Of a stretch of 59,516 nucleotides of DNA, positions 17,001-35,279 are shown one piece after another. The stretch comes from an uncultured Pseudomonadales bacterium. Lineage in GTDB: Bacteria > Patescibacteriota > Microgenomatia > UBA1400 > PJMF01. Each line of letters opens with the position of its first letter. Positions within the stretch are counted from its first letter, which is position 1. The translations under genes were made by a program, and so were the position numbers. Location: positions 2,553-62,068 of the forward strand of contig CAZYRN010000004.1 of assembly GCA_964650185.1 (NCBI GenBank). The letters are read 5' to 3'. A model generated the notes under the pieces. That model was given only the letters and a program-made list of their open reading frames with translations. It did not search any database and was not told the origin of the DNA.

Positions 17001-19031
17001 TTGCTCGCTGGTGGTTTTATCGCTAGTTTACTGCTAACTGGTTACTTGTTTTTAGGAACTCCCTTTTCTAAATCGACCACCACCGCTCAAACAGGTCCCC
17101 ATTTCTTGACTGTCGACAGCACTGACCCACACAAATTCAATTATCAAGGTCAGCAAGTAATGCTAAAGGGTGTTAATTTTAATAATTTAAATGCTCTTGG
17201 TCTTTGGCAGGCATCAGATATCGACAAGATTAATGTCGGACCTGGAGATTATGAAAAAGTCTCGCAAATGGGAGCAAATCACGTTCGCTTTGGTCTTAGT
17301 TATCAATGGTATGAACAAGATCCAGTCGAGTTTTTCTCTGTTTTAGACCAGCATGTCCAGTGGGCACGAGATAATAATCTCTGGATAATCTTGGTGGACT
17401 TTACATTGCCTTATCTGGGAGAAAACACAGATGACGGGCTAGCTCATCCGTTAGGTGGATGTTATCAGGGTTATGGTAATCCTTGTAATTTTTGGGGCGA
17501 TGAGCCAAATGAAGAAGCAGCTCGACTGGCTTTTAAAGAATTTTGGTATGACATTGTGTCTCATTATGAAAATAATGACACTGTCGCAGGATATGATTTT
17601 ATCAATGAACCGTGGGCACAGGATGAAAGCTACCAAAAGGGCATCCATTCATCTCGCTATTATGAAGAGATTGTTGATGGAATTGTTGAAAATAATCACA
17701 ACGCCACCCAACTCTTTTTTCTTGAATCTGAACCAGAACCGCTTTCTTGGATTTATTTCCTCGGCTATTCTCCCGGCTCTTCTTTAATTAATAGTTTGAA
17801 ATCTGTCACCAATAACCGGATTGTGATGAGCGTGCACATGTATCGGCCGCAAGCGTTGACTCATTATGAGGAAGTAGTCTATCCCACTCTCGAGAGCGGT
17901 GTGGAGTGGAATCAATCTAGCATGACCGATCCCACTGCCCCAGAGGCTTTTCCTGGTGATGTGGTCAAAACAATCTATACCTCAGGCAGCATTACCGTTA
18001 ACTCAGTCACCTACAATTCTGTCGATGAGTATCTTACTGATTATCCTCATGATATCCGAACTAGGTTTGGCTTAATTTTTAGTCAACAGACGTTAGGTGT
18101 GCCAATCTATATTGGTGAATGGTCAGCACAGCAAACTGAAGACTCTGGAGGAAATGGCTGGTACACCAATACCTTTATTGATTACAATATCGATATTGCT
18201 AATTTATTTGATAGCTGGGAAGTTCATGATGCCGTTTATACATTTAAGGCCGGACCTTATAACTGGGGGCTTTTTATTAGCTCCACCGCCCAACCCGCCG
18301 GTCAATTTAATCCCAGTGTGGCAAGTAATCCAGAAAATCCCACTGAGACAATCCAACCTTTTATTGATGTCTTGACCGCTCGGTGGAATTTAACAGTCAA
18401 ACCTGATTTTACTGAAAGTGGTGGAGAACCAGACCCTACACCAACGCCGACACCTGAGCCATCCCCTGATCCGACTCCGGATCCATCGCCTGAGCCATCC
18501 CCAGATCCCAGCCCTGATCCCAGTCCTGATCCCAGCCCTGATCCCAGTCCCGAGCCATCTCCAGAACCCAGCCCCTCACCAACCCCAATACCAGCGGTGT
18601 TTCCATCGCCTTCTCCCGTCACCAACACCGCTCCTAAGCAAGTGTCTTTCTCTAAAGCTGAAGCCCCCACTTGCCAAGATATTTACCCGGTAGGTATAGT
18701 AGATTTATTCCAGATTGATCGCGAAGGCAGTGCTGCAACACTCTTCTTCACCCCCCTTACCGACGCCAATCAATATAGTGTTGTTTTTGGCTATGAACCG
18801 AATGACGAGCGGTTTGGCGGTATCGATCTAGCTTCAACCGATCTCAACAATGGCGTGCAATCAATTACTGTTAATTATCTTGATCCAACCCAGCAGTACT
18901 CCTTTAAAATACTTCCCACCAATGGTTGTGCTGCCGGGGCTTGGTCTAATTGGTTGAATGCTTCCGGCCAACCGGAAAACTTAACTACCTTGCAAAGATT
19001 TTACCGTTACACTCAAGAACTGCTGAATTAA
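17001..19031 (+). CDS. Secreted glycoside hydrolase family 5 with Pro/Ser/Asp linker and C-terminal Fn3-like domain
   Basis: N-terminal hydrophobic segment; KGVN, HVRF, DFINEP (acid/base), HMY, YIGEW (nucleophile); PSPD repeats; terminal beta domain ending GCAAGAWSNW. Start codon (TTG) uncertain. Confidence 0.88.
   Translation: MLAGGFIASLLLTGYLFLGTPFSKSTTTAQTGPHFLTVDSTDPHKFNYQGQQVMLKGVNFNNLNALGLWQASDIDKINVGPGDYEKVSQMGANHVRFGLSYQWYEQDPVEFFSVLDQHVQWARDNNLWIILVDFTLPYLGENTDDGLAHPLGGCYQGYGNPCNFWGDEPNEEAARLAFKEFWYDIVSHYENNDTVAGYDFINEPWAQDESYQKGIHSSRYYEEIVDGIVENNHNATQLFFLESEPEPLSWIYFLGYSPGSSLINSLKSVTNNRIVMSVHMYRPQALTHYEEVVYPTLESGVEWNQSSMTDPTAPEAFPGDVVKTIYTSGSITVNSVTYNSVDEYLTDYPHDIRTRFGLIFSQQTLGVPIYIGEWSAQQTEDSGGNGWYTNTFIDYNIDIANLFDSWEVHDAVYTFKAGPYNWGLFISSTAQPAGQFNPSVASNPENPTETIQPFIDVLTARWNLTVKPDFTESGGEPDPTPTPTPEPSPDPTPDPSPEPSPDPSPDPSPDPSPDPSPEPSPEPSPSPTPIPAVFPSPSPVTNTAPKQVSFSKAEAPTCQDIYPVGIVDLFQIDREGSAATLFFTPLTDANQYSVVFGYEPNDERFGGIDLASTDLNNGVQSITVNYLDPTQQYSFKILPTNGCAAGAWSNWLNASGQPENLTTLQRFYRYTQELLN
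18429..18592 (+). repeat. 12-bp-period coding repeat (P-S/T-P-D/E)n
   Basis: ccatcccctgat ccgactccggat ccatcgcctgag ccatccccagat cccagccctgat cccagtcctgat cccagccctgat cccagtcccgag ... Confidence 0.9.
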
Positions 19032-23834: not shown

Positions 23835-23910
23835 AGCCTCTACATCCATCTCTTCAAATGCAGGTTATTCTTCAGCCTCATCAATTTTAAAATTTGGTGG
23901 TTGTTGTTCT

Positions 23911-24744
23911 TCAATCATTTTTACTCCTATCTTGCATCTCTACTGCTAGTTCTTGTGCGGCCTGAGCCGGACTGTCTGCAAAAATTATTCCGCGGCTGGA
24001 ATTAATAATTAATCCCAAACCTTTTTCATTGCAGCCATCTCTCAACACGGCTGCCAAATCTCCGCCCTGCGCTCCCACCCCCGGCACTAACAGCGTCATC
24101 TCACCCACCAACTGCCTCACTTGAGACAATTCAGCCGGATAAGTAGCACCCACTACCAACAGACAGTTGCCATGTTCATTCCATTCTGAAGCAACCTGCT
24201 GAGCTACCACCTGCCACAGTGGCTGCGTCGGTAAATTATCACCCCCAGTTCTGCTCACCATTAAATCCTGTAATTCGCCAGCACCTGGATTAGAAGTGCG
24301 GCACAAAAAAATACAACCTTTGTCTTGACGTACTAAAAATGGCTGCATTGCTTCATGACCTAAATAAGGATGGAGCGTGATGGCGTCAAAACCCAGCTCG
24401 TCAAAAATCCCTTTCGCGTATGCTTCGTTAGTTGAACCAATGTCAGCTCGCTTCGCATCAGCAATGGTGGGCAGCTGAGGATGCCGTTCCTGCAAATACA
24501 TCATGGACATTTTTAGCTCCCGCCAGCCCTGCTCCCCCCTCGCTTCGTAAAAAGCCAAGTTAAATTTATAGCAACTTGTGTATTGATGAGTTTCCTCTAT
24601 TATCCACTTATTAAACTCATATTGAGGATATTCTTTGCTCAAAAAAGAAGATGGTAATTTGGAAATTTCACTATCTAAACCCACACTCAGTAAGGAATTA
24701 ATTGATTGCGCCCGAGCTTCGTATTTTTCTACAAAAGTGGTCAT
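23911..24744 (-). CDS. pyrF: Orotidine-5'-phosphate decarboxylase (type 2)
   Basis: VGLD, YKFNLAFY, DAKRADIGST, CRTSNPG, VVGATYP, LVPGVGAQGG, NSSRGI. Confidence 0.96.
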   Translation of the reverse strand: MTTFVEKYEARAQSINSLLSVGLDSEISKLPSSFLSKEYPQYEFNKWIIEETHQYTSCYKFNLAFYEARGEQGWRELKMSMMYLQERHPQLPTIADAKRADIGSTNEAYAKGIFDELGFDAITLHPYLGHEAMQPFLVRQDKGCIFLCRTSNPGAGELQDLMVSRTGGDNLPTQPLWQVVAQQVASEWNEHGNCLLVVGATYPAELSQVRQLVGEMTLLVPGVGAQGGDLAAVLRDGCNEKGLGLIINSSRGIIFADSPAQAAQELAVEMQDRSKND

Positions 24745-25373
24745 TTATTCCTTTCCGCCCAGCTCCATGGTTCTTGCAGCCAGGACTCAATTAGCTCTTT
24801 TTCTGCTGGTGAAAACAGTTTTCGCGCTAATGCCACCTCAAGAATAATAGGAAAAGTTGTTAGGGTATGCAGTTTCACATTTGCCTGCGCAAACGCCTTT
24901 TCAGCCTCAGGAAACCCGTAAGCAGTGATGACCAAACAGTCTGCCACTTCAGCTTGATCATGACGCAGTGCCTCGACTCCGGCTAGACTGCTGCCGCCTG
25001 TGGTGACGTGATCCTCGATCAGCAGCACTTTTTTTCCTTGCACTTGACCGCCTTCAATCTTGCTTTTAGTCCCATGATCTTTGACTTTTTTCCTAATAAA
25101 TACCGATGGCTGCCGCAGCTGATATCCTAAAGCTGCACTATGAGGAATACCTGCTGTCTCGATGCCAGCTAACAAATCAAATTCCAGTCTTTGTTGAGCA
25201 ATTAACTGCTGAAAACCTGCAATGACCAACTCCCATTCCTGAGGATGAGCCGGAAAAATCCGATTATCAACATAAACCGGTGATAATAACCCAGACTTAA
25301 AAGTGATTGGCTGCTGGGGTGAAAAACCTACCGCCTTAATATCGAGTAAAGCTGCTGCAATTTTTGCTTGCAT
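24741..25373 (-). CDS. pyrE: Orotate phosphoribosyltransferase
   Basis: FKSGLLSPVYVDNR, RKKVKDHG, PRPP motif VLLIEDHVTTGGS. ATG 25373 overlaps the upstream stop. Confidence 0.96.
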   Translation of the reverse strand: MQAKIAAALLDIKAVGFSPQQPITFKSGLLSPVYVDNRIFPAHPQEWELVIAGFQQLIAQQRLEFDLLAGIETAGIPHSAALGYQLRQPSVFIRKKVKDHGTKSKIEGGQVQGKKVLLIEDHVTTGGSSLAGVEALRHDQAEVADCLVITAYGFPEAEKAFAQANVKLHTLTTFPIILEVALARKLFSPAEKELIESWLQEPWSWAERNK

Positions 25374-26443
25374 TAGTTCCTTTCTTCCCAAATTTCCATG
25401 GCGAGATGCGGCTGCCACATAGCTCCAGTGGCACTTAGCACTGCGTCTGCTCCTAACTGTCGATAGTCAGCATAATCTTGGGCACTCATCACTCCGCCGA
25501 CGCCAACCACCACGAATTGCTGGTCATATTCGGCTCTCAACTGCACCAAGCGTTTTACCATCTCCAAACCTGCCCATTTAATACTCGCTCCGCAAATACC
25601 ACTTCTTTCTCGTCCTTTTCCAGGCAAAGCAGGCTTGCCAGCTTCATTCACCACCAAAGCCGGAATGGTATTAATGGCAATTAATCCATCAACAATCGGG
25701 CCGACTTTAGCTACTAGCTCTGCTAAGTGTGCCTCTTCGGCAAAATAAGCTAGTTTGAGCAGTAGCGGCGTGTTGCCAATTTCATTTTTAATCTGATCCG
25801 CAATCTGGCGCACCCGCTCCACATCAAAACATAATAGCTCAGCTGTGCCTTCATTAGGACAACTGAGATTAGCAGCTAAAATTGGCGCGCCAGTCTCTTT
25901 CACCAATCTAGCCCCCAACACATAATCATCAATAAAATCCTGAACAGAACCACCCGGCAGCTTTGTGCCTTGAAAACCGCCGATCAGCGCTTGACCCTTA
26001 CCAGCTGCCTGCACGGCTGCAGCCATATCTGGCTGCCACCAATCTGGATCCATGGAGGGGACGCCAAATGAGTTAGTAATTGAGAGCGGCTCCTCATAAT
26101 TTTCATCAGCCACCACTGGCTGCTGAGCTCTCTCTAAGCTGAGCTCACCTTCAATTTTCGCCGCTAGCACATTCGGGTTGGGGTGACAGGGATAAAATTT
26201 GGTGCGGACAGTTTTATAAACATTCAAATCAAAACCTTTGACAAAAGCAGCTGCCACAAACTTACCGTTAATTAATGGTCCAGCCGGAATACCAAATGGC
26301 TGAAATAATTTCTGACCTAAAAACTCTACTTGCGGTTCATCGAGTCGATGCAGCTGCTCACCATCAGCAAAAGCCCCAAATGGACCTGTCTCAAAATTAG
26401 CTTCGTATGAAAGCTGAGGATCGTAAAAAGGTTGTTCCATCAT
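25373..26443 (-). CDS. pyrD: Dihydroorotate dehydrogenase, divergent class-1-like
   Basis: PFGIPAG, YKTV, NSFG.PS, NLSCPN (catalytic Cys), LLKL, INT, GICG, VGVGGV; located directly upstream of pyrE-pyrF. Confidence 0.85.
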   Translation of the reverse strand: MMEQPFYDPQLSYEANFETGPFGAFADGEQLHRLDEPQVEFLGQKLFQPFGIPAGPLINGKFVAAAFVKGFDLNVYKTVRTKFYPCHPNPNVLAAKIEGELSLERAQQPVVADENYEEPLSITNSFGVPSMDPDWWQPDMAAAVQAAGKGQALIGGFQGTKLPGGSVQDFIDDYVLGARLVKETGAPILAANLSCPNEGTAELLCFDVERVRQIADQIKNEIGNTPLLLKLAYFAEEAHLAELVAKVGPIVDGLIAINTIPALVVNEAGKPALPGKGRERSGICGASIKWAGLEMVKRLVQLRAEYDQQFVVVGVGGVMSAQDYADYRQLGADAVLSATGAMWQPHLAMEIWEERN

Positions 26444-26446
26444 GAT

Positions 26447-27478
26447 TTAATTTGCTTGACTGTTTTCGGTTAAGCCCAGCACCTTTCTGCCATTACTAGT
26501 GGCAATTTTGGTTAGTGCAGCTAAATCATAAAAGTGCAGACTTTCCAGTAAAAATCTTAACTCCAGCCACATCTCCCCATCAGTAAATGGTTTATAAATA
26601 TCAGCGATGTTGTCGGTGCCAATGGCGACGGTAATTCCGGCCGCAGTCAGCTCCTCCACAGGTGTGACAGAATTATGAACCGGCTGCAGCTCTTCGCGAC
26701 GCCGGTGGTCAATCCACGCCGTTGGGCATGCAATCATCATCACTCCTGCTTCTTTGAGCTGCTGATATAGCTGCTGACGATAAGCTTGCGGATGACTGGC
26801 AATGGAGATGCCATGTATCCCCACCACTTTTCCTGCCATGCCATGCTGGCGAGTTTTGGCAGCAAGCAGTTCAGTCTCTGTTTCTTGAGGACTATTGAGC
26901 TGATCAACATGCACATGCACAAGTTTATTGAGCCGCTGAGCAGTCTCCATAATGATATCTAGGTGCTCCTCTTCCCTACCCAGATCTTTACCCGGCAAGC
27001 CGCCAATAATATCCACAAATTCAGCTCCTCGCTCAAACCACTCCCGCGCCGTCGGCTCGATAACTCCTTTTAAAGTCTGGTTAATAAAAACCAGCTCCAA
27101 ATCTGCCTGATATTTTTCTCTTACTTTGGTGGCAGCTTGGATCGCCTTATCCTCAATCACCTCATCAACATCAATAAAGCTGCCCAGCGCAGTCACTCCC
27201 TGAGCCAACTGCCGCTCGATTGCCATCGCCATCCGATCATAGATTTGAGCAACCGTTGAGGTTCGTTTCATTTCATCTACCAGCGTCCACTTTTGTTGTA
27301 ACTGTGCTTCAGCTAAGTCCAATAAATCTGGAGTAATGGAATATGCCCGATCCAGGTGGGTGTGGGCATTCACCCACCCGCCTCGAGCTTTAATTTCCTC
27401 AAGCAACAAGCCTTTTAGATCCCACTCCGCAAGGCCTGTTAACTTCGCTTCAGTAGCTTTTTTAGCTGCGTTTGCCAT
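26447..27478 (-). CDS. Cytosine-deaminase/AtzC-like metal-dependent amidohydrolase (atypical active site)
   Basis: NAHTHLD (H39/H41), HVHVDQ (H190), IHG (H222), GTDN (D289). Compact, lacking most of the N-terminal beta domain. Confidence 0.85.
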   Translation of the reverse strand: MANAAKKATEAKLTGLAEWDLKGLLLEEIKARGGWVNAHTHLDRAYSITPDLLDLAEAQLQQKWTLVDEMKRTSTVAQIYDRMAMAIERQLAQGVTALGSFIDVDEVIEDKAIQAATKVREKYQADLELVFINQTLKGVIEPTAREWFERGAEFVDIIGGLPGKDLGREEEHLDIIMETAQRLNKLVHVHVDQLNSPQETETELLAAKTRQHGMAGKVVGIHGISIASHPQAYRQQLYQQLKEAGVMMIACPTAWIDHRRREELQPVHNSVTPVEELTAAGITVAIGTDNIADIYKPFTDGEMWLELRFLLESLHFYDLAALTKIATSNGRKVLGLTENSQAN

Positions 27479-29090
27479 TTCTGACGACCAATCTTTTCGC
27501 TAGTTTATGAACATAGTTCTCCGCGATCTCATAGTTATCAATGTACTTAGTGTCATTTTTGACTGACCACTCCCGAATGACTTTTTGATCAGCTTTGGCT
27601 TCGCCAGTTTGTTCACGGTAGGGCTCATGGAAAATGACATCAAATCGGTCTTGTCTCAGCAGATCTTCTAAAGAAGGATTTTTCTTTTTGTACATCTTAT
27701 GAATTAAGATGGATGGCACTTTGTTTTTCTTGAAGAAGCGGTATGTGCCATTGGTAGCATAAAGTTCATATCCTAACTCAATCATCTTTTTAGCTAAAGG
27801 CAAATACTTCTGCTTATTGTCATCTTCACCAATAGTAAACAAGGCAAAGTACTGTTTTTCTTGAGCTGTTTTCATTTGCAGCGTGTAGATTTCCGTAAAG
27901 CCAGCTGAGCAGTTCTGGTTAAAACCCTCACTCTTCATAAAGGTCGCTAACCGCTCTTTGTAAAGTGAGTTGGGACTCTCGACAGCTACTACTTCAGCAC
28001 AGCCTTTATACAGCCGGAGAGTGGCTTTACCAGTCACTTTCTGATTAACTCTGTCTAAGTAAGCATTGAGATTTTGCAGTAGCGGCTCATACCACAGACC
28101 GCCATAGCATAAATAAGCCCACTTATTATCAATTTCAGCCTTGAACTCATTTTCATAACGAGTTGAGACGTATTTTTCTAAGTTAAAGTGTGCTTGAATA
28201 ATAATTTCTGCTGCAGGCGCTTCATATAAACCGCGCACCTTCAACCCGACTAAGCGATCCTCAATGTGATGAGTCACCCCCACGCCGTGTTTGGCGCCAA
28301 TCTTATTCAGCTTCATAATTAGCTCATGCAGCTGCATGTTTTTACCATTTAAAGCCACTGGCAAGCCTTTGACAAAATCAAGCGTCACCAGCTCTGATTT
28401 ATCAGGTGCTTTTTCCGGCAAGGCACACACCTGTAAAATTTTCTCTAAGGGCGGAATCATTTCCGGATTTTCAATTTCACCGCTCTCACCTGTCACGCCC
28501 CACATATTGTCATCATAAGAATAAGGCGAGTCTTTAGTTTGTTTGACAGGAATGTTGTGTTTCTTCACATACTCCAACTGCTCATCCCGACCCATACTCC
28601 ACTCTCTAACTGGCGCAATGATCTTCATTTCCGGTGCTAAAGTCAGTACAGTGCCTTCAATCCGCACTTGGTCATTCCCCTTGCCGGTACAGCCATGAGC
28701 GATGGTATCAGCCTCATACTTGCGGGCCGTATCAACCGCTAATTTTGCCAACAGCGGCCGGCCGATAGGCGTACTAAGGTGGTATTTTCCCTGATAGCTA
28801 GAATTCGCTTTAATGCCCCAGGCAATATAATGGTAAGCGAACTCTTTTTTAGCATCAATTAAAACCGCTTTATAAGCACCTAAATCCAGTGCTTTTTGCT
28901 TAATTTTTTCTAAATCATCCGCTTGCTGACCAATATCAATTGTTAACGCAATTACCTCTGCTTCATACTCATCCGCAATCCATTTCAGCATCATCGAGGT
29001 ATCAAGGCCACCAGAGTAAAGTAGAACCACTCTTTTGACTTCTCCCTTGCGTCCTTCGTAACTCGACACCTTGATGTACTGTTGCATCAT
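27462..29090 (-). CDS. argG: Argininosuccinate synthase fused to a C-terminal MGS-like (CarB allosteric-type) domain
   Basis: YSGGLDTS, AHGCTGKGNDQVR, DDNMWG and DRLVGLKVRGLYEAP in aa 1-410. aa ~413-532 (FTI...K......KKM.ELGYELYATNGT.....HK....P...D......D.I) match the CarB/MGS pattern. SD GAAAGGAG. Confidence 0.93.
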   Translation of the reverse strand: MMQQYIKVSSYEGRKGEVKRVVLLYSGGLDTSMMLKWIADEYEAEVIALTIDIGQQADDLEKIKQKALDLGAYKAVLIDAKKEFAYHYIAWGIKANSSYQGKYHLSTPIGRPLLAKLAVDTARKYEADTIAHGCTGKGNDQVRIEGTVLTLAPEMKIIAPVREWSMGRDEQLEYVKKHNIPVKQTKDSPYSYDDNMWGVTGESGEIENPEMIPPLEKILQVCALPEKAPDKSELVTLDFVKGLPVALNGKNMQLHELIMKLNKIGAKHGVGVTHHIEDRLVGLKVRGLYEAPAAEIIIQAHFNLEKYVSTRYENEFKAEIDNKWAYLCYGGLWYEPLLQNLNAYLDRVNQKVTGKATLRLYKGCAEVVAVESPNSLYKERLATFMKSEGFNQNCSAGFTEIYTLQMKTAQEKQYFALFTIGEDDNKQKYLPLAKKMIELGYELYATNGTYRFFKKNKVPSILIHKMYKKKNPSLEDLLRQDRFDVIFHEPYREQTGEAKADQKVIREWSVKNDTKYIDNYEIAENYVHKLAKRLVVRNGKRS

Positions 29091-29245
29091 GCTCCTTTCA
29101 GTTTAGTTAATATTGAGTGGTGTTTATGCAAAAGATGCCAATGAAAAAGATGCAAAAAAAATCCCGCCTGGGCGGGAGTGAAACCAAACACCGAATGGGG
29201 TGTTTTCAGTTGTTGCTGGAAAGTAGTTTTCTTAGTGGTAGGCAC
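29087..29245 (-). CDS. Putative 52-aa leader peptide reading through the terminator
   Basis: GTG 29245 is open to TGA 29087-29089, which overlaps the argG ATG (ATGA): VPTTKKTTFQQQLKTPHSVFGFTPAQAGFFLHLFHWHLLHKHHSILTKLKGA. Confidence 0.35.
   Translation of the reverse strand: MPTTKKTTFQQQLKTPHSVFGFTPAQAGFFLHLFHWHLLHKHHSILTKLKGA
29154..29177 (-). terminator. Intrinsic terminator (attenuator) inside the argG-pyr operon leader
   Basis: TCCCGC-CCAG-GCGGGA followed by T8, lying between the promoter and the argG start. Confidence 0.85.
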
Positions 29246-29255
29246 TAAGAATGAC

Positions 29256-29285
29256 AGTATAGTCCTAGCGATAATCCAATTGCAA
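29256..29285 (-). promoter_or_regulatory. Sigma70-type promoter of the argG-pyr operon
   Basis: TTGCAA (29280-29285), 18-nt spacer, TATACT (29256-29261). Confidence 0.7.
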
Positions 29286-29293
29286 CGGGTAAT

Positions 29294-29932
29294 TTAGTGG
29301 GATGACATTTTTTCTTTGACCGCCGCCCAAATAGCTTCCTCAACCTCATCTACATCTTGATCGGCATCAATCACTACCCACCGATTCATCTCGTCAGCAG
29401 CGGCCAGCTCTAAGTAAGCCGCCCGAACTTGGTCATGGAATTTTTTATTTTCCATGTCCAAGCGATTCACATCACCGGCGTCGTTACGGCGATTTAAACC
29501 CTTCGCCACATCCACATCCAGCAGTAAAGTTAAATCAGGATAAGTATTTTTTGTAGAAATATTATTCAACTCTTCAATCATCTCTTTACCAAAACCCCTC
29601 ACCAAACCTTGGTAAACCACACTGCTGTCGCGGGAGCGATCCATCACGACTACTTTGCCAGATTCCAAAGATGGAATAACTAGCTCGCGATAAATCTGGG
29701 CTCGAGCTGCTTGAAATAATAAAACTTCAGTTGTAAAAGCCATGCCAACATTTTTACTAGACAACACCACTTCCCGAATCTGCTCAGAAATCACCGTGCC
29801 ACCCGGCTCGCGCAAAATTAACACATCTTTGCCGACTTTAGTCAGCCGCTCTCTAATGCGAACTGCCTGAGTAGTTTTACCACCGCCCTCGCCGCCTTCT
29901 AAAGTAATTAAAAAACCAGGTTTATTTGACAT
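29294..29932 (-). CDS. tmk: Thymidylate kinase
   Basis: LEGGEGGGKTTQ, REPGGT, LFQAARAQ, MDR...S...YQG, PDLTLLLD. Confidence 0.96.
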   Translation of the reverse strand: MSNKPGFLITLEGGEGGGKTTQAVRIRERLTKVGKDVLILREPGGTVISEQIREVVLSSKNVGMAFTTEVLLFQAARAQIYRELVIPSLESGKVVVMDRSRDSSVVYQGLVRGFGKEMIEELNNISTKNTYPDLTLLLDVDVAKGLNRRNDAGDVNRLDMENKKFHDQVRAAYLELAAADEMNRWVVIDADQDVDEVEEAIWAAVKEKMSSH

Positions 29933-29959
29933 GGAGATATCTTATCAAAAAATAGCATA

Positions 29960-30769
29960 TTATTCTAAGCTGTACTGCTGAGCCATGGCGGGAAGTGGAT
30001 GGTCCCTTCTAAATTGTTCCTGTAACATCTCAAAATTCATGGGATTTCTAAAGTCACCAATTAAATCTTTGTAGGGCCACCAATCTACTCGCTCAAGTCC
30101 AAGTGGGCGCTCCTCACCTAAGATTTGTAGGTTGTTTCTGATGAATCGTAGACACAGATGTGAGTGATCTTTTTGCTTTTGTCGATCATCCTGAGTAAGT
30201 CTTTCACCAGTAAAATAATCTTTGCCATTAAAAAATATAGCTGGATAGTTTCTTCGGTCCTTTTCTTCTACATCAGCAATCACTTGATTAACTGGAGTGT
30301 TAATAGGAACAGCTAAGTATGCTGAAAGTAATAATGTTAAAAATTCTTCCAATTCTTTAATTAAATTCTTTTCATCTAAATTACCTGCTATTTCAAATAG
30401 TCGATCGAGAATATCCGATCTTCTACCCTGACCATTCACACTTCTTCTCACTTGGTCATAATCAATTTCTTCAGTTGGCGAAGGCGTACCCATGGCCACC
30501 CAGCCTCCGTCCGTAAGTTCAATTAGTAAGTTTTCTACTATTAATTGCTCAAGCTCTTGTCGAATCTCTTCCAACTCTCCCAGCAATAAATTGATAGATC
30601 CATCAAGGCTACCTGGAATGATTGATTTCCTTTCGCTTAACCAGATTATGACTGTGTTCCGGAAATTTTCTAAATCCGTAGTTTCAATTAAGAAATCCCG
30701 TCGTTCTCCATAGCCTTGATGAAGTAAAAGATGAGGAAATTTTTCAGAACTTTTGGTCAAAGTAGCCAT
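29960..30769 (-). CDS. Hypothetical protein, possibly MazG-like all-alpha NTP pyrophosphohydrolase
   Basis: LLGELEEI...IELTD (ExxE...ExxD) and VEEKDRRNYP segments. AT-rich; GGAG upstream of ATG 30769. Confidence 0.5.
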   Translation of the reverse strand: MATLTKSSEKFPHLLLHQGYGERRDFLIETTDLENFRNTVIIWLSERKSIIPGSLDGSINLLLGELEEIRQELEQLIVENLLIELTDGGWVAMGTPSPTEEIDYDQVRRSVNGQGRRSDILDRLFEIAGNLDEKNLIKELEEFLTLLLSAYLAVPINTPVNQVIADVEEKDRRNYPAIFFNGKDYFTGERLTQDDRQKQKDHSHLCLRFIRNNLQILGEERPLGLERVDWWPYKDLIGDFRNPMNFEMLQEQFRRDHPLPAMAQQYSLE

Positions 30770-30900
30770 AACAACCACACTCCTATATTAGATAACTAAC
30801 AGAATACCCGTAGCTAATAAATTAGAAAACCACAACAGCTTGTGGTTTAAAAACTATCTAACCACAAAATTATGCACTTTATTCACGCACTTTTCCAGAA

Positions 30901-31437
30901 TTATTCCCGCAAAGCCTGGTATTCCAGCATGATAGTTTGTGATGACAATTGTTTTAGATTGATCAACTTGAGATCAGCGGTAACATCATTATTAAAAAGA
31001 CTGATGCCTTGGCCAAAAACGACTGGCTCAATAGTTAAGTACAGCTTGTCTACCAGGCCTGCCTGCAGAAATAAGGTGTAAATAGTTGCTCCGCCAGAAA
31101 TAGCCACTTGAGTAAATCCAGCTACTGCCAAAATATCAATGACTTCTGTAGGTGATTGCTTAGTAAAATAAGCCTCTCCTGGTTGTAGCTTGATACCTCT
31201 TTTTAGCTCAAGCTGATTCTTACCAATCTCTCTACTGAACACTATATTTACTCTGCCTGACAAAGGTCGCGGCAGGGTGTGAAAAGTATTACTGCCCATC
31301 ACCACCACTCCAGCGGCTTTGCTTTTTTCTGCAAACCAAGCTGCATCTTCCTTGCTTGTCCAACGAGTCGATAAATCGGCGTCATGACGCCCGATCCAGC
31401 CATCAGCGGTTAAAGCTGCAATGATAAAAACTTCCAT
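30901..31437 (-). CDS. Dihydrofolate reductase family protein
   Basis: IIAALTADG.IG, W..KED..WF, VVMGSNTF, RPLSGRVNIV, ISGGATIY, KLYLT. Confidence 0.88.
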   Translation of the reverse strand: MEVFIIAALTADGWIGRHDADLSTRWTSKEDAAWFAEKSKAAGVVVMGSNTFHTLPRPLSGRVNIVFSREIGKNQLELKRGIKLQPGEAYFTKQSPTEVIDILAVAGFTQVAISGGATIYTLFLQAGLVDKLYLTIEPVVFGQGISLFNNDVTADLKLINLKQLSSQTIMLEYQALRE

Positions 31438-31498
31438 CTTTTCCTAATTACCTTTCTTTTTCTTACTTTTCTGGCTTTACTTACATTTAGAATTGTTC

Positions 31499-31533
31499 AT
31501 TGCCTAAAAACCAGATGATTGCCTAAAAACCAG
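31499..31533. repeat. 16-bp direct repeat duplicating the dut stop region
   Basis: ATTGCCTAAAAACCAG at 31499-31514 and 31518-31533. Confidence 0.85.
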
Positions 31534-31951
31534 TTGAACCGATTCCACCTCGACTATCATGACCCAACTTTTTCACCTCTTCAATCTCCACTGCTTCTCT
31601 GGGCAGCACTAACAACTGCACTAAGCGCTCCCCTTTTTTGATGACTGCCGGCTGTTGAGAAAAATTAAATAAAATAGCATGGTACTCATCATCATCACCG
31701 CAAAAATCTTCATCACCCACCCCAATGCCATTAGCCATCAACAAACCTTTTTTGTGCAGTGAGCTACGCGCTGCCATTAACGCCCAGTGATGGGGCGGCA
31801 GCTCTATAGCAATATTTAACGGCACATAACCAATTTCCTGAGGCTGAATAGTAAAATTAATTCGGGCATATAAATCCAGAGCTGCCGCCCGCTCAGTTTT
31901 ATACTCGGGCAATGGCAGACTAGTATCAAAACGCTTCATCTTTAATTTCAT
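31523..31951 (-). CDS. dut: dUTP diphosphatase
   Basis: AAALDL, ARSSL, GVGDEDF, GERLVQL, RGGIGSTG. Confidence 0.93.
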   Translation of the reverse strand: MKLKMKRFDTSLPLPEYKTERAAALDLYARINFTIQPQEIGYVPLNIAIELPPHHWALMAARSSLHKKGLLMANGIGVGDEDFCGDDDEYHAILFNFSQQPAVIKKGERLVQLLVLPREAVEIEEVKKLGHDSRGGIGSTGF

Positions 31952-31993
31952 CTATTCAAGTATAACATTGCTCATTATTGACGGAGCTGGTGC

Positions 31994-32866
31994 TTAGACA
32001 GTTGCTAAACTCAAATAGAAGAAAAGTTGAGCTTTTTCCTCAGGTGTAAGCTCAGCTGAAAAATGATTATCTAATAATTCTTGAAAAGCGCTCACGTTTT
32101 CCTGCCAATACTCTGCGTAATTAACACCGCCAAACATATCTGCTCTGCACAAGAGGAAAATTTTCGCAATTAAATCCAACTTAACTGCTCTAATAAAAGC
32201 TAAAAACTGCTCTTCTGTCTGGACTTGCTCTTTAAAATCTTGAAAAAAGTGATGATACAGAATGACTAACTCCATTGCTTCCCAAAAAGATTCATCAGCT
32301 ATTTTGCCTCTATTTTCGACTTGGTCAATGAGCTGACGAATAATTATTGCTCCTAGTTCAGCATGACTGGGATGAGAGTGTTTTTCCTCTGGAGGAATTA
32401 GTTGATTAATCTCTTTTTGAGTCATGCCCCCGCTAATAGCTTTGCCTGCATCATGATAGATGGCTGTTAGTCTAAGAAAAAATCTTAGCTCCGCCTCAAT
32501 GCCATCAGTTTTCAGCTCTCTCAGCACCTTAATGGTATGTTCGTAGGGAGTCTGACCACTGTGACCTGTTGTCACCCTAATAGCTTTGGAGTTAAGTTTA
32601 GTAAATAATTCTGACTTCGCTAAAATCTCTTCTAAATTTGGCAGTACTTGCTCAATAAACAACTCATCACTTAACTGTCTCGTAGCTGACAAAATTTGTA
32701 TTAACTGCTGAAAAATTTGCACATCTTCTTCCTCACCTGCCCACTCTAACCTGCCATTTTCATTTAAAGTAAAAATTGAGTTAGGATGATCAATCAGACG
32801 CCTTTGTTCTTCAGTGATCTCTGGAGTTCGATAATGTTCAACAGTCCTGCCGTTTAACTTACTCAT
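31994..32866 (-). CDS. HD-domain protein
   Basis: YEHT..V, AIYHDAGK, HAELGA, YHH and AD motifs of the HD superfamily. Confidence 0.75.
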   Translation of the reverse strand: MSKLNGRTVEHYRTPEITEEQRRLIDHPNSIFTLNENGRLEWAGEEEDVQIFQQLIQILSATRQLSDELFIEQVLPNLEEILAKSELFTKLNSKAIRVTTGHSGQTPYEHTIKVLRELKTDGIEAELRFFLRLTAIYHDAGKAISGGMTQKEINQLIPPEEKHSHPSHAELGAIIIRQLIDQVENRGKIADESFWEAMELVILYHHFFQDFKEQVQTEEQFLAFIRAVKLDLIAKIFLLCRADMFGGVNYAEYWQENVSAFQELLDNHFSAELTPEEKAQLFFYLSLATV

Positions 32867-32939
32867 GACCGCAAACTATATCAAACCTTAGTTAAACTGT
32901 CACTTGCCACTCAACCTTACTTCTTGCTACAGTAACCTC

Positions 32940-33878
32940 ATGCTGACCGTCCCCTCTCAACCTAAGACTAAAAAAACTCCCGATACCCAATACCGAGAAA
33001 TTTTACAGCTCATTATGGATCATGGCACCCGAGTGATGGCCCAAGCTGGTGGTGAGAAAAAATCTGACACCGACACCATTAGTTATATCGCTCCTCCACC
33101 TATGCGTTTTGATCTGGAAAACGGTTTTCCTCTCCTAACTGAGCGCAACCTGGCACCGGATTTTAAAAAAGTTCCGACTGTCTGGAAACAGGCCATTGGC
33201 GAGATTATCGGTTTTATTAACGGTGCCCGAACACAGTCTGAGTTAGAAAAATACGGCTGCCACTGGTGGAAATACTGGGTAACTGCTGAAAAATGCCAAA
33301 AACGCGGTTTAGAACCAGGTGATCTAGGGCCAGGCTCATATGGAGCCGCTTTTCATGACTTCCCTACCGCTGAAGGCGATAGTTACAATCAAGTCAAAAA
33401 TATTGTCGAGCAGATCATCGAGTTGCCACATCTTAAAACGCACTTCATCTCTCCTTGGATTCCGCAGTACACCATTCGCGGCACCGGTAAAAAGCAGCAG
33501 GTTGTAGTCTGTCCATGTCATGGCTGGATGCACTTTTTTGTCCGTGACGGCAAATTAAGTTTGCACATGTTCCAGCGATCCGGTGATGTGCCAATTGGCA
33601 TTCCGCAAAATATGGCTCAATATGCGGCTTTAGTGATGATGATGGCTCAAGCTACTGGAAATAAACCTGGCGAGCTGATTCACACCATCTCTGACGCTCA
33701 TATCTATGTTAATCAGCTGCCGGCTGTGGAAGAAATTCTCAAAAGAGAACCGCGGCCATTTCCCACCATGAAGCTCAACACCGACAATACTGATATTTTC
33801 AAATTTAGAGTTGAGGACTTTGAACTGAGTGACTATCATCCTCATCCTGGCATAAAAGGCATTCCGGCCGCAATTTAA
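32940..33878 (+). CDS. thyA: Thymidylate synthase
   Basis: GFPLLTER, CPCH (catalytic Cys), QRSGD, PQN (Asn = dUMP specificity), DAHIY. Promoter TTGCCA-18-TACAGT lies 6 nt before ATG 32940. Confidence 0.95.
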   Translation: MLTVPSQPKTKKTPDTQYREILQLIMDHGTRVMAQAGGEKKSDTDTISYIAPPPMRFDLENGFPLLTERNLAPDFKKVPTVWKQAIGEIIGFINGARTQSELEKYGCHWWKYWVTAEKCQKRGLEPGDLGPGSYGAAFHDFPTAEGDSYNQVKNIVEQIIELPHLKTHFISPWIPQYTIRGTGKKQQVVVCPCHGWMHFFVRDGKLSLHMFQRSGDVPIGIPQNMAQYAALVMMMAQATGNKPGELIHTISDAHIYVNQLPAVEEILKREPRPFPTMKLNTDNTDIFKFRVEDFELSDYHPHPGIKGIPAAI

Positions 33879-33891
33879 TTAGAAAGACCAG

Positions 33892-34368
33892 ATGGCAACA
33901 GATTACTCCAATACCCAGCATGTTGATTTAGCAAACGCTCGTGAAGATGAGCAGCGGCAAGTCATGAAAAAGATCATTGAAGCTAATGAATGCCCTTTCT
34001 GCCTGGAAAATCTCCAAAAATACCACACTCCGCCCATTTTATTTGAAACAGCTCACTGGCTGCTAACCTCTAACCGCTGGCCTTACAAACATACTCAATA
34101 CCACTTGCTGGCCATCTTAAAATCACATAAAGAAATGTTAGCTGAGCTTACAACTGCAGAAGGTGCGGAACTCGTCGAGATCCTACATTTTGCGCAAGAA
34201 CACACTCAAGCTCTTGGCGGAGGTGTCGCGATGCGTTTTGGCGACACCAGTTATTCGGCTGGCACCATCAAGCATCTTCATGTGCAGTTTATTGTGCCTG
34301 ACATTGACCAGCCAGATTTTGAACCAGTTAGAATTAAAATCGGCAAAGATAGAGAAAAAAGAAATTAA
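33892..34368 (+). CDS. HIT-superfamily protein, HxHxQ type
   Basis: CPFC, N.WPY, H, and G.TIKHLHVQ motifs. Confidence 0.85.
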   Translation: MATDYSNTQHVDLANAREDEQRQVMKKIIEANECPFCLENLQKYHTPPILFETAHWLLTSNRWPYKHTQYHLLAILKSHKEMLAELTTAEGAELVEILHFAQEHTQALGGGVAMRFGDTSYSAGTIKHLHVQFIVPDIDQPDFEPVRIKIGKDREKRN

Positions 34369-34409
34369 TTTTCTTCTGCACTCAGATTATTCCACCACTC
34401 TAACTTTAT

Positions 34410-35279
34410 TTATTCCGCCACTCGAATAATCTCAATTCCGCTGGCTCGCAACAAACCTTCGCCATCCAAAACCGAGTAGCCATCTTTATAAAAAAGCCGT
34501 TTGATTCCGCTATAGGCAATTATTCTGGCACAATATGGACACGGAAAAGTTGTCACATACAGATCTGCACCACGCAATGAAATGCCTTGTGCGGCAGCAT
34601 GAGCGATAACTGCTCCTTCAGCATGCAGAGAGGTCGACATCTCGATATCTGCTCCTCGAGAATAATTAGCTCGCGGGTCACCTAAAAAGTACTGTTGCTG
34701 ATCTGAGGGGGCATGACGGTTGCCAGCCGAAACCAGCAGTTGGCCATCCTTAGCAATGGCTGCGCCTGTCTGCCGCCACCAGTCTGCACTGCGTTGAGAA
34801 GCCGCTACGGCCGAGCCCATAAATTGCTGATGAAGTTCATCTCGAGTCACTTCTCCGTCTGGATTTATATCCTGCTGCTGTTTGGTTTTAGCTAAACTCC
34901 AGCGCAAAAAAATGGAGTCATGTGTAATTTTGGGAGCTGTAGTCACTTTTGCAACCAAATTTTTTTCTAGCCAGTCACTAATCTCGTCTTCCGCCATGAT
35001 AAGTTCTTGATAGTCAGCCAGTTGCGCTAGATCTGCTTCTGCCTGCAGGTGAATCAAAACTCGGTCCGGAAATAAACTCTTTAGTTGCTGCAAAATCAGC
35101 TCTGTTGAGAGTGCTCTGATATCTTTCAAGATCGATTTAAACTCACCTTCTAAAAATTTTTTATCCACCACCGCTAACTCTGCCTCAGGATATTTAGTCA
35201 ATAAATTTAAATAACCCTGGTGAAGCACCGGAATATAAAGGACGATAGCCTGGTTATGAGTGGTGGGATTCGTGGCCAT
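34410..35279 (-). CDS. dCMP deaminase with an N-terminal nucleotidyltransferase-like domain
   Basis: C-terminal S.DWWRQTGA, GN, HAE...PCPYC. The ~140-aa N-terminal extension starts YIPVLHQGY. Confidence 0.85.
   Translation of the reverse strand: MATNPTTHNQAIVLYIPVLHQGYLNLLTKYPEAELAVVDKKFLEGEFKSILKDIRALSTELILQQLKSLFPDRVLIHLQAEADLAQLADYQELIMAEDEISDWLEKNLVAKVTTAPKITHDSIFLRWSLAKTKQQQDINPDGEVTRDELHQQFMGSAVAASQRSADWWRQTGAAIAKDGQLLVSAGNRHAPSDQQQYFLGDPRANYSRGADIEMSTSLHAEGAVIAHAAAQGISLRGADLYVTTFPCPYCARIIAYSGIKRLFYKDGYSVLDGEGLLRASGIEIIRVAE

Follow-up and report, generated by a model that had tools for sequence, protein, structure and literature searches.

An argininosuccinate synthase fused to a carbamoyl-phosphate synthetase-type allosteric domain heads a pyrimidine operon and suggests a nucleotide-controlled route from citrulline to UMP

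The window (the whole 59.5-kb stretch of DNA that was analysed) carries an operon whose first gene encodes an argininosuccinate synthase (ArgG) with an MGS-like C-terminal domain (ArgG-MGS), followed in order by genes for a CodA/AtzC-like amidohydrolase, a DHOD-like enzyme, PyrE and PyrF (Table 1). The stop codon of the fusion gene overlaps the start of the amidohydrolase gene by 17 nt in the list of open reading frames, which implies translational coupling; the translationally coupled operon is a pyrimidine rather than an arginine operon. The DHOD-like enzyme scores below every NCBIfam equivalog cut-off and retains both the NLSCPN catalytic loop (aligned to NISCPN of DHOD 5ksw) and the INT motif. 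The operon lies in a pyrimidine island with tmk, DHFR-like, dut, thyA and dCMP-deaminase-like genes, and no gene for CarAB, PyrB (ATCase) or PyrC (DHOase) was found within the window. The preliminary description had regarded the fusion as an arginine-pathway enzyme, whereas Pfam, NCBIfam and the comparison of loci place the gene at the head of a pyrimidine operon, and with that placement the probable target of its regulation changes as well.

Table 1. Features of the ArgG-MGS locus, in coordinates of the window
Feature	Position	Strand	Description	Basis
Leader, tmk to argG-MGS	29091..29293	-	203 nt	Pattern scan
ArgG-MGS fusion gene	27462..29090	-	542 aa, single ORF, no internal stop	ORF list, Pfam, NCBIfam
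Argininosuccinate synthase core	27879..29042	-	aa 17-404	PRK00509, TIGR00032, 1j1z alignment
MGS-like / CPSase-allosteric-type domain	27471..27857	-	aa ~412-540	PF02142, CarB C-terminus match, AF2, fold matches
Predicted phosphate/nucleotide pocket	27696..27836	-		HMMER alignment to E. coli CarB
T419	27834-27836	-	CarB S948	HMMER alignment to E. coli CarB
K426	27813-27815	-	CarB K954	HMMER alignment to E. coli CarB
T446	27753-27755	-	CarB T974	HMMER alignment to E. coli CarB
T449	27744-27746	-	CarB T977	HMMER alignment to E. coli CarB
K465	27696-27698	-	CarB K993	HMMER alignment to E. coli CarB
F487-H488-E489	27624..27632	-	CarB I1014-N1015-T1016; lineage-specific variant	HMMER alignment
Mononuclear-metal amidohydrolase	26447..27478	-	343 aa	PRK06886, 477 bits vs cut-off 340
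DHOD-like enzyme, divergent class-1-like	25373..26443	-	356 aa	PF01180, 67 bits
PyrE, orotate phosphoribosyltransferase	24741..25418	-		TIGR00336, 125 bits vs cut-off 106.8
PyrF, OMP decarboxylase (subfamily 2)	23911..24744	-	product UMP	TIGR02127, 228 bits vs cut-off 110.6

In the leader upstream of the fusion gene, a promoter-like site lies at 29285-29256, a GC hairpin with U8 behind it at 29177-29162, and the SD sequence GAAAGGAG ahead of the ATG. Its fold has a z-score of -2.3, and in the pattern scan promoter and terminator patterns were no more frequent than in shuffled sequence; the hairpin may be an attenuator or the terminator of tmk. Searches of Rfam at the gathering threshold returned only tRNAs in the window and six related loci, while a relaxed search of the leader gave a single sub-threshold match at chance level and no PyrR element.

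A complete type-I ArgG (aa 17-413) is joined without a stop codon to the MGS-like tail, as had been noticed from the sequence: the segment first described (27495-27854) corresponds exactly to aa 413-532 by the open reading frame, Pfam and NCBIfam. The two-domain architecture of type-I ArgG (HUP/ATP-pyrophosphatase plus the ArgG C-terminal domain) was recovered by Pfam and Foldseek, with Arginosuc_synth (PF00764) at aa 20-181 (214 bits) and Arginosuc_syn_C (PF20979) at aa 190-408 (220 bits). The fusion protein exceeds the cut-offs of both NCBIfam equivalogs, PRK00509 (500.3 bits against 334) and TIGR00032 (446.5 bits against 268.2), and its core aligns over its full length, motifs included, with the Thermus thermophilus enzyme 1j1z (E 6e-98). 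Foldseek matched the core to ArgG structures at E 1e-33, the T. thermophilus enzyme 1kh1 being 41% identical. The ATP loop YSGGLDTS lies at aa 25-32, further motifs are HGCTGKGNDQVR, PYSYDDNMWGVTGESG and IEDRLVGLKVRGLYEAP, and across 44 homologues the SGGLDTS loop and the Asp/citrulline motifs (TGKGNDQxR; S..D.N...S/T.E.G; E.R..G.K.RG.YE) are invariant. In ArgG one contact to citrulline is made by a Ser five residues past a conserved Tyr; the fusion has Pro108 at that position, which is invariant among the ArgG-MGS homologues aligned. Judged by its sequence, the core is a genuine argininosuccinate synthase, predicted to form argininosuccinate from citrulline, aspartate and ATP, an activity that the ArgH gene beside the fusion in L056 and the citrulline-forming enzymes beside it in nine loci support indirectly. 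It shares its core and all ATP, aspartate and citrulline motifs with type-I enzymes (T. thermophilus 1j1z and 1kor; Legionella pneumophila 6xnq), and differs from them in about 130 additional C-terminal residues that form a separate domain, and in a genomic context that is pyrimidine rather than arginine, with ArgH hardly ever adjacent. To our knowledge, bacterial ArgG is an enzyme unregulated at the protein level, as textbooks have it, and we know of no regulatory domain on it.

By sequence as well as by fold, the tail is most closely related to the carbamoyl-phosphate synthetase allosteric domain. Pfam assigned MGS (PF02142) to aa 430-514 (46.1 bits against a cut-off of 24.1, E 5.6e-12), NCBIfam matched the tail to positions 898-1048 of the CarB model, at the C-terminal end of its 1058 positions, and the sequence matches in the PDB were 2yvq and CarB 937-1034. 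Strands are predicted at 414-420, 441-445, 485-489 and 515-517 and helices at 423-438, 447-455, 474-479, 496-511 and 520-539, and AF2 modelled this part with a pLDDT of 83-94 in the full-length protein and 82.8 for the tail alone. The fold of the tail model is closest to CarB and CPS1: its parallel-sheet, Rossmann-like fold superposes on these with an rmsd of 2.1-2.7 A, with a TM of 0.70 for the allosteric domain of E. coli CarB (rmsd 2.7 A, E 5e-8) and 0.73-0.76 for the MGS domain of human CPS1. MgsA (TM 0.65, 12-15% identity) and PurH, in which the MGS fold is catalytic, rank below these regulatory CPSase domains, and the NCBIfam search did not report the MgsA family for the fusion protein. 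A methylglyoxal synthase enzyme is an improbable identity for the tail, as MgsA structures fit worse than CPSase domains. Like the allosteric domain of CarB (933-1073 in E. coli), to which its sequence identity is only 21-34%, the tail is C-terminal on an ATP-using enzyme that heads a pyrimidine/arginine pathway; here that enzyme is an N-type ATP-pyrophosphatase, whereas in CarB it is an ATP-grasp enzyme, and the effector here is a predicted one. The ornithine site of CarB lies at the interface with its carbamoyl-phosphate domain, an interface that is missing in ArgG-MGS.

Alignment of the tail to E. coli CarB with HMMER reproduced the pocket that had been aligned by hand in the preliminary description (K426, T446, T449 and K465) and extended it to T419. 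These columns are the most conserved of a domain in which the mean frequency of the top residue is just 0.59: across 80 species K426, T446 and K465 are present in 80/80, T449 in 79/80, S or T at position 419 in 79/80 and D501 in 79/80. The equivalents of CarB D1025 and I1029, which are nucleotide-pocket residues in the IMP complex, are also conserved. The resemblance to CarB extends to the equivalents of K954, T974, T977, K993, S948 and D1025. In the E. coli enzyme the pocket binds UMP as inhibitor and IMP as activator, T977 and K993 are crucial to UMP binding and inhibition, and S948, as part of the nucleotide effector site, is where the S948F substitution abolishes sensitivity to UMP and IMP (PMC6245113). 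One position departs from CarB in the window protein, where the ribose-contact Asn of the I-N-T strand (N1015) is a His, and this counts against UMP as ligand. The replacement of INT by FHE was confirmed at residues 487-489, while the shift in effector specificity that had been read into it was not upheld: position 487 is I in 57 species, V in 16 and F in 6, position 488 is N in 57, H in 16 and D in 5, and position 489 is I in 41, V in 26 and E in 1, so that FHE is a peculiarity of the lineage, and the loss of the N1015 equivalent is lineage-specific because the family consensus keeps I-N-(I/V).

The combination of ArgG and MGS is new, ancient and widespread, and public annotation names it merely 'argininosuccinate synthase'. 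Far from being confined to this assembly, the architecture was found in more than 120 protein clusters, with PF02142, PF00764 and PF20979 on all 120 listed, and in 80 species-level loci from two phyla, in Patescibacteria and Silvanigrellales; its carriers include the cultured Fluviispira multicolorata, which bears the same operon. When the tail alone was used in a library search of representatives, mostly fragments were returned, together with other MGS architectures. The domain is under purifying selection, with dN/dS values of 0.018-0.17 for the MGS part and 0.009-0.07 for the ArgG core, and the relaxed selection that had been raised as a possibility was not seen. A full-text search of the literature gave no description of the fusion or of its operon. 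One paper on Patescibacteria merely names argG and argH among enriched genes.

Gene neighbourhoods were counted within +/-10 kb of each of the 80 ArgG-MGS genes. The PRK06886 amidohydrolase, which is the obligate partner of ArgG-MGS, is present in 72/80 loci (directly downstream in 60, farther along the same strand in 3 and convergent within <4 kb in 9), and a non-orthologous 8-oxoguanine-deaminase-like amidohydrolase occupies the same slot in another 5/80. A deaminase-type amidohydrolase therefore accompanies the fusion in 77/80 loci, and the other three loci end <=3.4 kb past ArgG. DHOD or a DHOD-like enzyme, PyrE and PyrF come next in many loci. Rosetta-stone fusions tie these genes together further, the amidohydrolase being fused to the DHOD-like enzyme in two loci (L058 and L077) and the DHOD-like enzyme to a PRTase in a third (L072). 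Among other MGS proteins, class-II aaRS-like cores with an MGS domain share the operons of L046, L057 and L071, carry the same PF02142 and include the closest relative of the MGS of ArgG. One protein (P0183) has the architecture aaRS-like::MGS::DHOD-like::PRTase.

Compared with the canonical operon (CarAB-PyrB-PyrC-PyrD-PyrE-PyrF), the last three steps, DHOD, PyrE and PyrF, are kept in the familiar order, a regulatory domain of the CarB type sits on the first enzyme, and in most loci ArgG-MGS and the amidohydrolase stand in the place of CarAB, PyrB and PyrC. CarAB is encoded in 5/80 loci. PyrB and PyrC are adjacent only in L070, whose operon has ArgG-MGS and the amidohydrolase alongside a full CarA, CarB, PyrB, PyrC and PyrD; the pair is therefore no simple replacement in this locus, the only one with both sets. 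ArgH is likewise adjacent in a single locus, L056, directly upstream of the fusion, so that the product is open to use in arginine synthesis in at least this genome. A scan of 1.3 Mb of loci for the fumarate-lyase signature returned 13 proteins, namely 11 of the PurB/PurB-PurS cluster (2 of them PurB by NCBIfam), one AspA/FumC-like protein and the ArgH of L056; a further candidate for ArgH, c37, was rejected on proving to be an amidohydrolase. Citrulline-forming enzymes lie beside the fusion in nine loci, DDAH/arginine-dihydrolase-like in eight and OTCase in L033 only.

PRK06886 is a separate NCBIfam family labelled 'hypothetical protein'. The nearest solved structures are cytosine deaminase 4r7w, CodA and AtzC, and the metal-site residues H39, H41, H190, H222 and D289 are invariant, so that the HxH, His, His and Asp ligands of the mononuclear-metal subtype of AtzC (N-isopropylammelide isopropylaminohydrolase) and CodA are kept. 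The protein differs from both in being about 80-100 aa shorter and in belonging to its own family, and it scores only 88-103 bits against cytosine-deaminase models whose cut-offs are 403-483, outside CodA membership. The position of the catalytic CodA E217, the glutamate of HxxE after the beta-5 His, is Q in 46/59 members and E in 12/59, the window protein having Q. AtzC is a hydrolase that removes an alkylamine from an amidine carbon of a ring, which is the chemistry that would be needed for release of ornithine from (cyclic) argininosuccinate.

From the identity and fold of the domains, the conservation of the pocket, the purifying selection, the distribution, the synteny and the Rosetta-stone fusions obtained here, the fusion and its operon context suggest that UMP is made from citrulline by a nucleotide-controlled route that may be undescribed. 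We infer the ligand, the sign of regulation and the substrate of the amidohydrolase, and therefore the pathway also. Citrulline would be supplied by a DDAH/ADI-like enzyme or OTCase, the genes of which adjoin the fusion in some genomes, and would be condensed with aspartate by ArgG-MGS. The amidohydrolase would then cleave argininosuccinate, or a six-membered cyclic anhydride of it, by hydrolysis at the guanidino C-N bond, freeing ornithine and leaving carbamoyl-aspartate or dihydroorotate, which the DHOD-like enzyme, PyrE and PyrF would carry on to UMP. ArgG-MGS would in this way take the entry point held by CarB and ATCase in the canonical pathway, and its MGS domain would exert end-product control of the CarB kind by binding a nucleoside monophosphate, for which UMP, acting as an inhibitor, is the most plausible candidate. 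We give about an even chance to the proposal that an ArgG under feedback regulation of the UMP type feeds citrulline and aspartate, by way of the amidohydrolase, into (dihydro)orotate. The earlier suggestion of a nucleotide-regulated ArgG survives in this form, in that a ligand-regulated ArgG withstands the checks of distribution, selection and pocket, whereas its arginine-pathway framing does not.

More tentative, and in our estimate somewhat short of even, is the broader reading that ATCase and dihydroorotase are bypassed in many Patescibacteria (Pace-, Woese-, Roizman-, Gottesman- and Levybacteria and some Saccharimonadales) and in Silvanigrellales, through ArgG-MGS and then an amidohydrolase of the PRK06886 or 8-oxoguanine-deaminase type, under control by UMP. 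Citrulline would come from arginine, or from ornithine and carbamoyl phosphate, and ornithine would serve as a recyclable carbamoyl carrier. Operon variants may have a radical-SAM enzyme in place of DHOD, or an added MGS-bearing AsnA/AsnRS-like ligase that could perform ring closure at the cost of ATP. Should carbamoyl-aspartate be the product of the amidohydrolase, a dihydroorotase would still be required, and none is encoded in the window. One extra ATP (converted to AMP + PPi) relative to ATCase also counts against the route.

An explanation that we consider less likely, and the strongest of those that compete with the proposed route, is that ArgG-MGS is an ordinary arginine enzyme with a nucleotide sensor that balances arginine against pyrimidine demand, the amidohydrolase being an unrelated salvage deaminase of the cytosine/isocytosine type and the co-location reflecting a shared regulon. 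Both pathways consume carbamoyl phosphate and aspartate, the ArgG core matches at equivalog level with its substrate motifs intact, ArgH lies directly upstream in L056, and in L070 the fusion is accompanied by every gene of the canonical pyrimidine set. Cytosine deaminase is the best solved relative of the amidohydrolase, and in seven loci the amidohydrolase gene shares its orientation with uridine kinase and not with ArgG, an arrangement that also fits a pyrimidine-salvage deaminase and counts against the route. However, 79/80 neighbourhoods are without ArgH and only one has OTCase, and the pairing of ArgG with an amidohydrolase, in two phyla, outlasts the non-orthologous replacement of the latter. 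The fusion of the amidohydrolase to the DHOD-like enzyme indicates a biosynthetic position and not salvage, most members have Gln for the catalytic Glu of CodA, and the overlap of start and stop codons argues for translational coupling of the pair.

Clearly less probable is that the MGS domain is functional without being a nucleotide sensor, and either binds a different phosphorylated or acidic molecule, which could be phosphate, PPi, carbamoyl phosphate or, as in CPS1, an acyl-amino acid, or acts mainly in oligomer assembly. The MGS domain of human CPS1 has the same fold and binds N-acetylglutamate, so that the fold alone leaves the ligand unfixed; MGS-like folds take varied ligands, with MgsA and PurH among the structural neighbours. 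None of the four residues that are conserved best makes a base-specific contact, all of them being ligands of phosphate, the N1015 equivalent varies (N, H or D), and the domain hangs on the C-terminal arm that makes tetramer contacts in canonical ArgG. Against this explanation, the equivalents of S948, D1025 and I1029 are conserved as well, the nearest relatives in fold and sequence are the CarB domains that bind UMP and IMP, and UMP is the end product of the operon. Hardly credible is the suggestion that the MGS domain is the decaying scar of an adjacent carB deletion or a misassembly of argG to the 3' end of carB: carB does adjoin argG-MGS in L059, L070, L074, L078 and L080, but a scar is refuted by the same junction in 80 species and more than 120 clusters, by dN/dS far under 1, by invariant ligand residues and by an identity of only 28-34% between the MGS of ArgG and that of an intact CarB in the same genome, compared with 40-43% to the aaRS-like::MGS fusion of the same operons, and an artefact is ruled out by contigs of four independent metagenome studies that assemble the identical junction in an ORF without indels, with substitutions only. 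Metatranscriptome contigs of low depth also span the ArgG/MGS and the ArgG/amidohydrolase junctions.

By most accounts, Patescibacteria cannot synthesise nucleotides. Yet in this operon an ArgG and an uncharacterised amidohydrolase take precisely the position that usually belongs to the first three enzymes of pyrimidine synthesis, and the presence of the same operon in the cultured F. multicolorata makes the proposed route directly testable. If it is true, pyrimidine biosynthesis would have a further, new entry, the scavenging of arginine and citrulline would be linked to the nucleotide autonomy of ultra-small bacteria, and reconstructions that score such genomes as pyrimidine auxotrophs would need revision.

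The argG-MGS gene encodes a complete type-I argininosuccinate synthase (ArgG) that runs without a stop into a CarB-type MGS-like domain, as had been read from the sequence alone, and the segment at 27495-27854 corresponds exactly to aa 413-532 (ORF, Pfam and NCBIfam). The ArgG core was recognized by Pfam (PF00764, aa 20-181; PF20979, aa 190-408) and NCBIfam (PRK00509, 500 bits versus a cut-off of 334; TIGR00032, 446 bits versus 268) and matched solved ArgG structures (E 1e-33; 41% identity to T. thermophilus ArgG). The C-terminal domain matched PF02142 (aa 430-514; 46 bits versus a gathering score of 24), and the tail also matched the final ~150 positions of the NCBIfam CarB models and was aligned by HMMER to E. 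coli CarB 937-1034 and to the isolated human CPS MGS domain (2yvq). The alignment to CarB reproduced the residue pairs that the preliminary description had derived by hand (K954=K426, T974=T446, T977=T449 and K993=K465) and the correspondence of I1014-N1015-T1016 to F487-H488-E489. Consistent with these matches, AlphaFold gave the tail a CarB/CPS1-like fold, with pLDDT values of 83-94 for the MGS domain in the full-length model and 82.8 for the tail modelled alone. Its best superpositions were with the E. coli CarB allosteric domain (TM 0.70, rmsd 2.7 Å) and human CPS1 (TM 0.73-0.76); methylglyoxal synthase (TM 0.65) and PurH ranked below these.

Given the pyrimidine genes on both sides of it, the fusion lies in a pyrimidine nucleotide island of ~11 kb and not in an arginine cluster, a context that the preliminary description had overlooked. 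The argG-MGS stop and the start of the following gene share an overlap of 17 nt, and the four downstream genes follow closely, each gap or overlap amounting to a few bases; the upstream genes extend from tmk to a dCMP-deaminase-like gene. The leader between tmk and argG-MGS, which no Rfam family matched, contains in order a promoter-like site (29285-29256), structured hairpins, and a GC hairpin with U8 (29177-29162) located 72 nt before the argG-MGS start codon (fold z-score -2.3). This leader may act as a transcription attenuator for the operon, or may be no more than the terminator of tmk. RNA contigs from compost and a biogas fermenter fell within the operon at a depth of only 2-4, spanning the ArgG/MGS junction (27644-27869, 27797-28061 and 27778-27928) and the ArgG/amidohydrolase junction (27296-27519), and in view of that depth and possible DNA carry-over they support co-transcription weakly. 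The interval 23900-29300 recurred in public metagenomes of bioreactors, sludge, anaerobic digesters, landfill, groundwater, soil, wastewater and sediment (20 runs, eleven studies; word share 0.37-1.00), which indicates an organism common in engineered and anoxic habitats. Elsewhere in the window, this small-genome bacterium encodes a secreted glycoside hydrolase.

Features of the window and of homologous loci (L-coordinates are positions within the locus)
Feature	Position	Strand	Remarks
argG-MGS	27462..29090	-	542 aa, uninterrupted (ORF listing)
Amidohydrolase	directly after argG-MGS		343 aa; NCBIfam PRK06886 ('hypothetical protein'), 477 bits
DHOD-like	after amidohydrolase		divergent
PyrE	after DHOD-like gene
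PyrF	last of the four downstream genes
Leader	29091-29293	-	203 nt, between tmk and argG-MGS
Thymidylate/pyrimidine island	29294-35279		upstream of operon
tmk	29294-29932
Unknown protein	29960-30778		272 aa, no Pfam match; also beside tmk in L006, L011, L015, L017
DHFR/RibD_C-like	30901-31437
dut	31523-31951
HD-domain protein	31994-32866
thyA	32904-33878	+
dCMP-deaminase-like	34410-35279		289 aa, ~145-aa N-terminal extension
Glycoside hydrolase	17001-19031	+	676 aa; GH5 cellulase domain, proline/acidic repeat region (weak PARP-repeat match)
PRK06886 (N-terminal)::DHOD-like (C-terminal)	L058:12531-14744; L077:12478-14625		one 715-737-aa protein
AsnRS-like::MGS	L046:12607-14097; L057:12610-14100; L071:12489-13907		472-496 aa, between amidohydrolase and DHOD
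Operon of L070	L070:10001-21602		ArgG-MGS, amidohydrolase, then CarA, CarB, PyrB, short 346-aa PyrC, PyrD ... PyrF
Variant operon	L030, L033, L061, L069, L074		ArgG-MGS, amidohydrolase, radical-SAM protein, PyrE-like PRTase

One genome per species was scanned, yielding 187 relatives, and the best 80 were examined as loci with ±10 kb on either side. The PRK06886 amidohydrolase was immediately downstream of ArgG-MGS in 60 loci, a little further off on the same strand in three and convergent within 4 kb in nine; in five the same slot held a non-orthologous deaminase-type amidohydrolase (8-oxoguanine-deaminase-like, 440 bits), and the three loci with none end ≤3.4 kb after ArgG. DHOD or DHOD-like proteins, PyrE-type phosphoribosyltransferases (PRTases) and PyrF were located downstream in many loci. 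Within ±10 kb, ATCase and dihydroorotase were found only in L070, a Gottesman/Roizman-like genome in which ArgG-MGS and the amidohydrolase precede a complete canonical operon; CarAB was found in 5 of the 80 loci, ArgH only in L056 (directly upstream of ArgG-MGS), a DDAH/arginine-dihydrolase-like gene in eight, and OTCase in L033. The variant operons have no DHOD, and their amidohydrolase (443-475 aa) is 8-oxoguanine-deaminase-like. Their radical-SAM slot, sometimes occupied by a divergent 416-454-aa relative with no Pfam match, may encode a putative oxygen- and flavin-independent dehydrogenase.

The mononuclear-metal ligands of the amidohydrolase (H39, H41, H190, H222 and D289) are all invariant. 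Among solved structures it is closest to cytosine deaminases and to AtzC, an enzyme that removes an alkylamine by hydrolysis from a ring amidine carbon. The protein scored far below every NCBIfam cut-off for cytosine deaminases; the position of catalytic Glu217 in CodA is Gln in 46 of 59 family members. Despite its divergence (67 bits), the DHOD-like protein has retained both the INT motif and the NLSCPN catalytic loop of class 1. It is fused to a PRTase domain in L072, and a separate protein of 1134 aa (P0183) joins an AsnRS/AsnA-like class-II core, MGS, a DHOD-like domain and a PRTase. The AsnRS-like::MGS proteins have an AsnRS/AsnA-like class-II aaRS core with no anticodon domain, and their C-terminal MGS is the closest relative of the ArgG MGS (40-43% identity). 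Within this operon type, the MGS module is thus attached to more than one ATP-using ligase, and AsnRS-like::MGS could be a candidate ATP-dependent ring-closing ligase that replaces dihydroorotase.

We propose a route from citrulline to UMP through a regulated ArgG-MGS and the amidohydrolase, a reading that, as a whole, we hold to be about evenly balanced between right and wrong. ArgG-MGS would convert citrulline and aspartate to argininosuccinate, and the amidohydrolase would cleave a guanidino C-N bond, releasing ornithine. Open argininosuccinate would yield carbamoyl-aspartate; argininosuccinate also forms a six-membered cyclic anhydride, which would yield dihydroorotate. DHOD, PyrE and PyrF would then finish UMP. 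Ornithine would be the leaving carrier, which OTCase could recycle in the presence of CarAB and which could be lost where citrulline derives from arginine, and the MGS domain would place the entry enzyme under CarB-like end-product control. The analysis itself establishes the identity of the domains, the conserved pocket, selection, synteny and the fusion proteins. We infer the substrate of the amidohydrolase, and hence the pathway, as we do the MGS ligand and the sign of its effect. The main rival reading, that ArgG is an ordinary enzyme cross-regulated with pyrimidines and its neighbour an unrelated salvage deaminase, seems to us possible but rather doubtful. The amidohydrolase is co-oriented with uridine kinase in seven loci, as expected of a salvage deaminase, and the ArgH of L056 would be able to use the ArgG-MGS product. 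The chief evidence against a model of pure replacement is L070, where the pair coexists with the full canonical set, and the window has no dihydroorotase, if one is needed. The amidohydrolase::DHOD-like fusions, for their part, place the amidohydrolase directly before the dehydrogenase, in the dihydroorotase position; in both L058 and L077, ArgG-MGS is separated from this fusion by a DDAH/arginine-dihydrolase-like gene.

In E. coli CarB the C-terminal domain binds UMP as an inhibitor and IMP and ornithine as activators, T977 and K993 are crucial to UMP inhibition and binding, and S948F abolishes nucleotide sensitivity (PMC6245113). Across the 80 species no part of the protein is less conserved than the MGS domain (mean top-residue frequency 0.59, versus 0.83 in the core), but the CarB effector-site positions stand out from it: K426, T446 and K465 are each present in 80/80 species, T449 and D501 (=D1025) each in 79/80, S or T at position 419 (=S948) in 79/80 and I505 (=I1029) in 76/80. 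It is safe to infer that a phosphorylated ligand is bound in a predicted CarB-like pocket; this ligand is likely a nucleoside monophosphate, and context suggests UMP. That the domain instead binds a non-nucleotide ligand or has a structural role is improbable in our estimation. The replacement of INT by FHE holds for the window protein but is a minority state, as the family consensus is I-N-(I/V) (N in 57 species, H in 16, D in 5; E in third position only once). Any shift in effector specificity would therefore concern the lineage of the window and not the fusion as such.

The fusion is not confined to this assembly: all of the best 80 of 187 relatives are ArgG-MGS fusions, as are the 120 best homologues (120/120 with all three Pfam domains; 67-77% identical, 514-567 aa). 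Contigs of four unrelated metagenome studies (bioreactor, sludge, landfill and groundwater) span the junction with substitutions only. By the Nei-Gojobori method on unsaturated pairs, dN/dS of the MGS part was 0.018-0.17, approximately twice that of the core (0.009-0.07) and far below 1, so that selection on the domain is not relaxed. The proposed alternative of a scar from carB deletion is ruled out by this spread, the low dN/dS and the mere 28-34% identity of the ArgG MGS to that of the neighbouring intact CarB (L070, L074 and L078), and an artefact by the shared architecture and the four studies. The hosts among the best 80 include Patescibacteria (Pace-, Woese-, Roizman-, Gottesman- and Levybacteria, a Torokbacterium and a Saccharimonadales MAG) and Silvanigrellales/Oligoflexia (L032, L038, L040-L042, L044, L047, L049-L055 and L066), among them the cultured Fluviispira multicolorata (L053). 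Both groups share the block of ArgG-MGS, amidohydrolase, DHOD-like protein and PyrE, and the Silvanigrellales/Oligoflexia ArgG is 62-64% identical to the Patescibacteria window ArgG, a similarity that suggests that the entire module passed horizontally between phyla that are very distant from each other; in the Silvanigrellales/Oligoflexia genomes the block has a PurB::PurS fusion and a GAF-HD protein as its flanking genes. Taxonomic labels among these loci look unreliable: many MAGs from 'binchicken' and SRP co-assemblies bear the title 'uncultured Pseudomonadales' or 'uncultured Gammaproteobacteria' and match Patescibacteria-labelled MAGs in operon and neighbours, L049 ('Betaproteobacteria') resembles Silvanigrellaceae loci and L065 ('Limisphaerales') Patescibacteria loci.

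The architecture is already present in public databases, annotated only as 'argininosuccinate synthase', and our literature search found no description of the fusion or the operon. The protein itself combines a known enzyme with a known sensor; the pathway to which it points would, if confirmed, be new.
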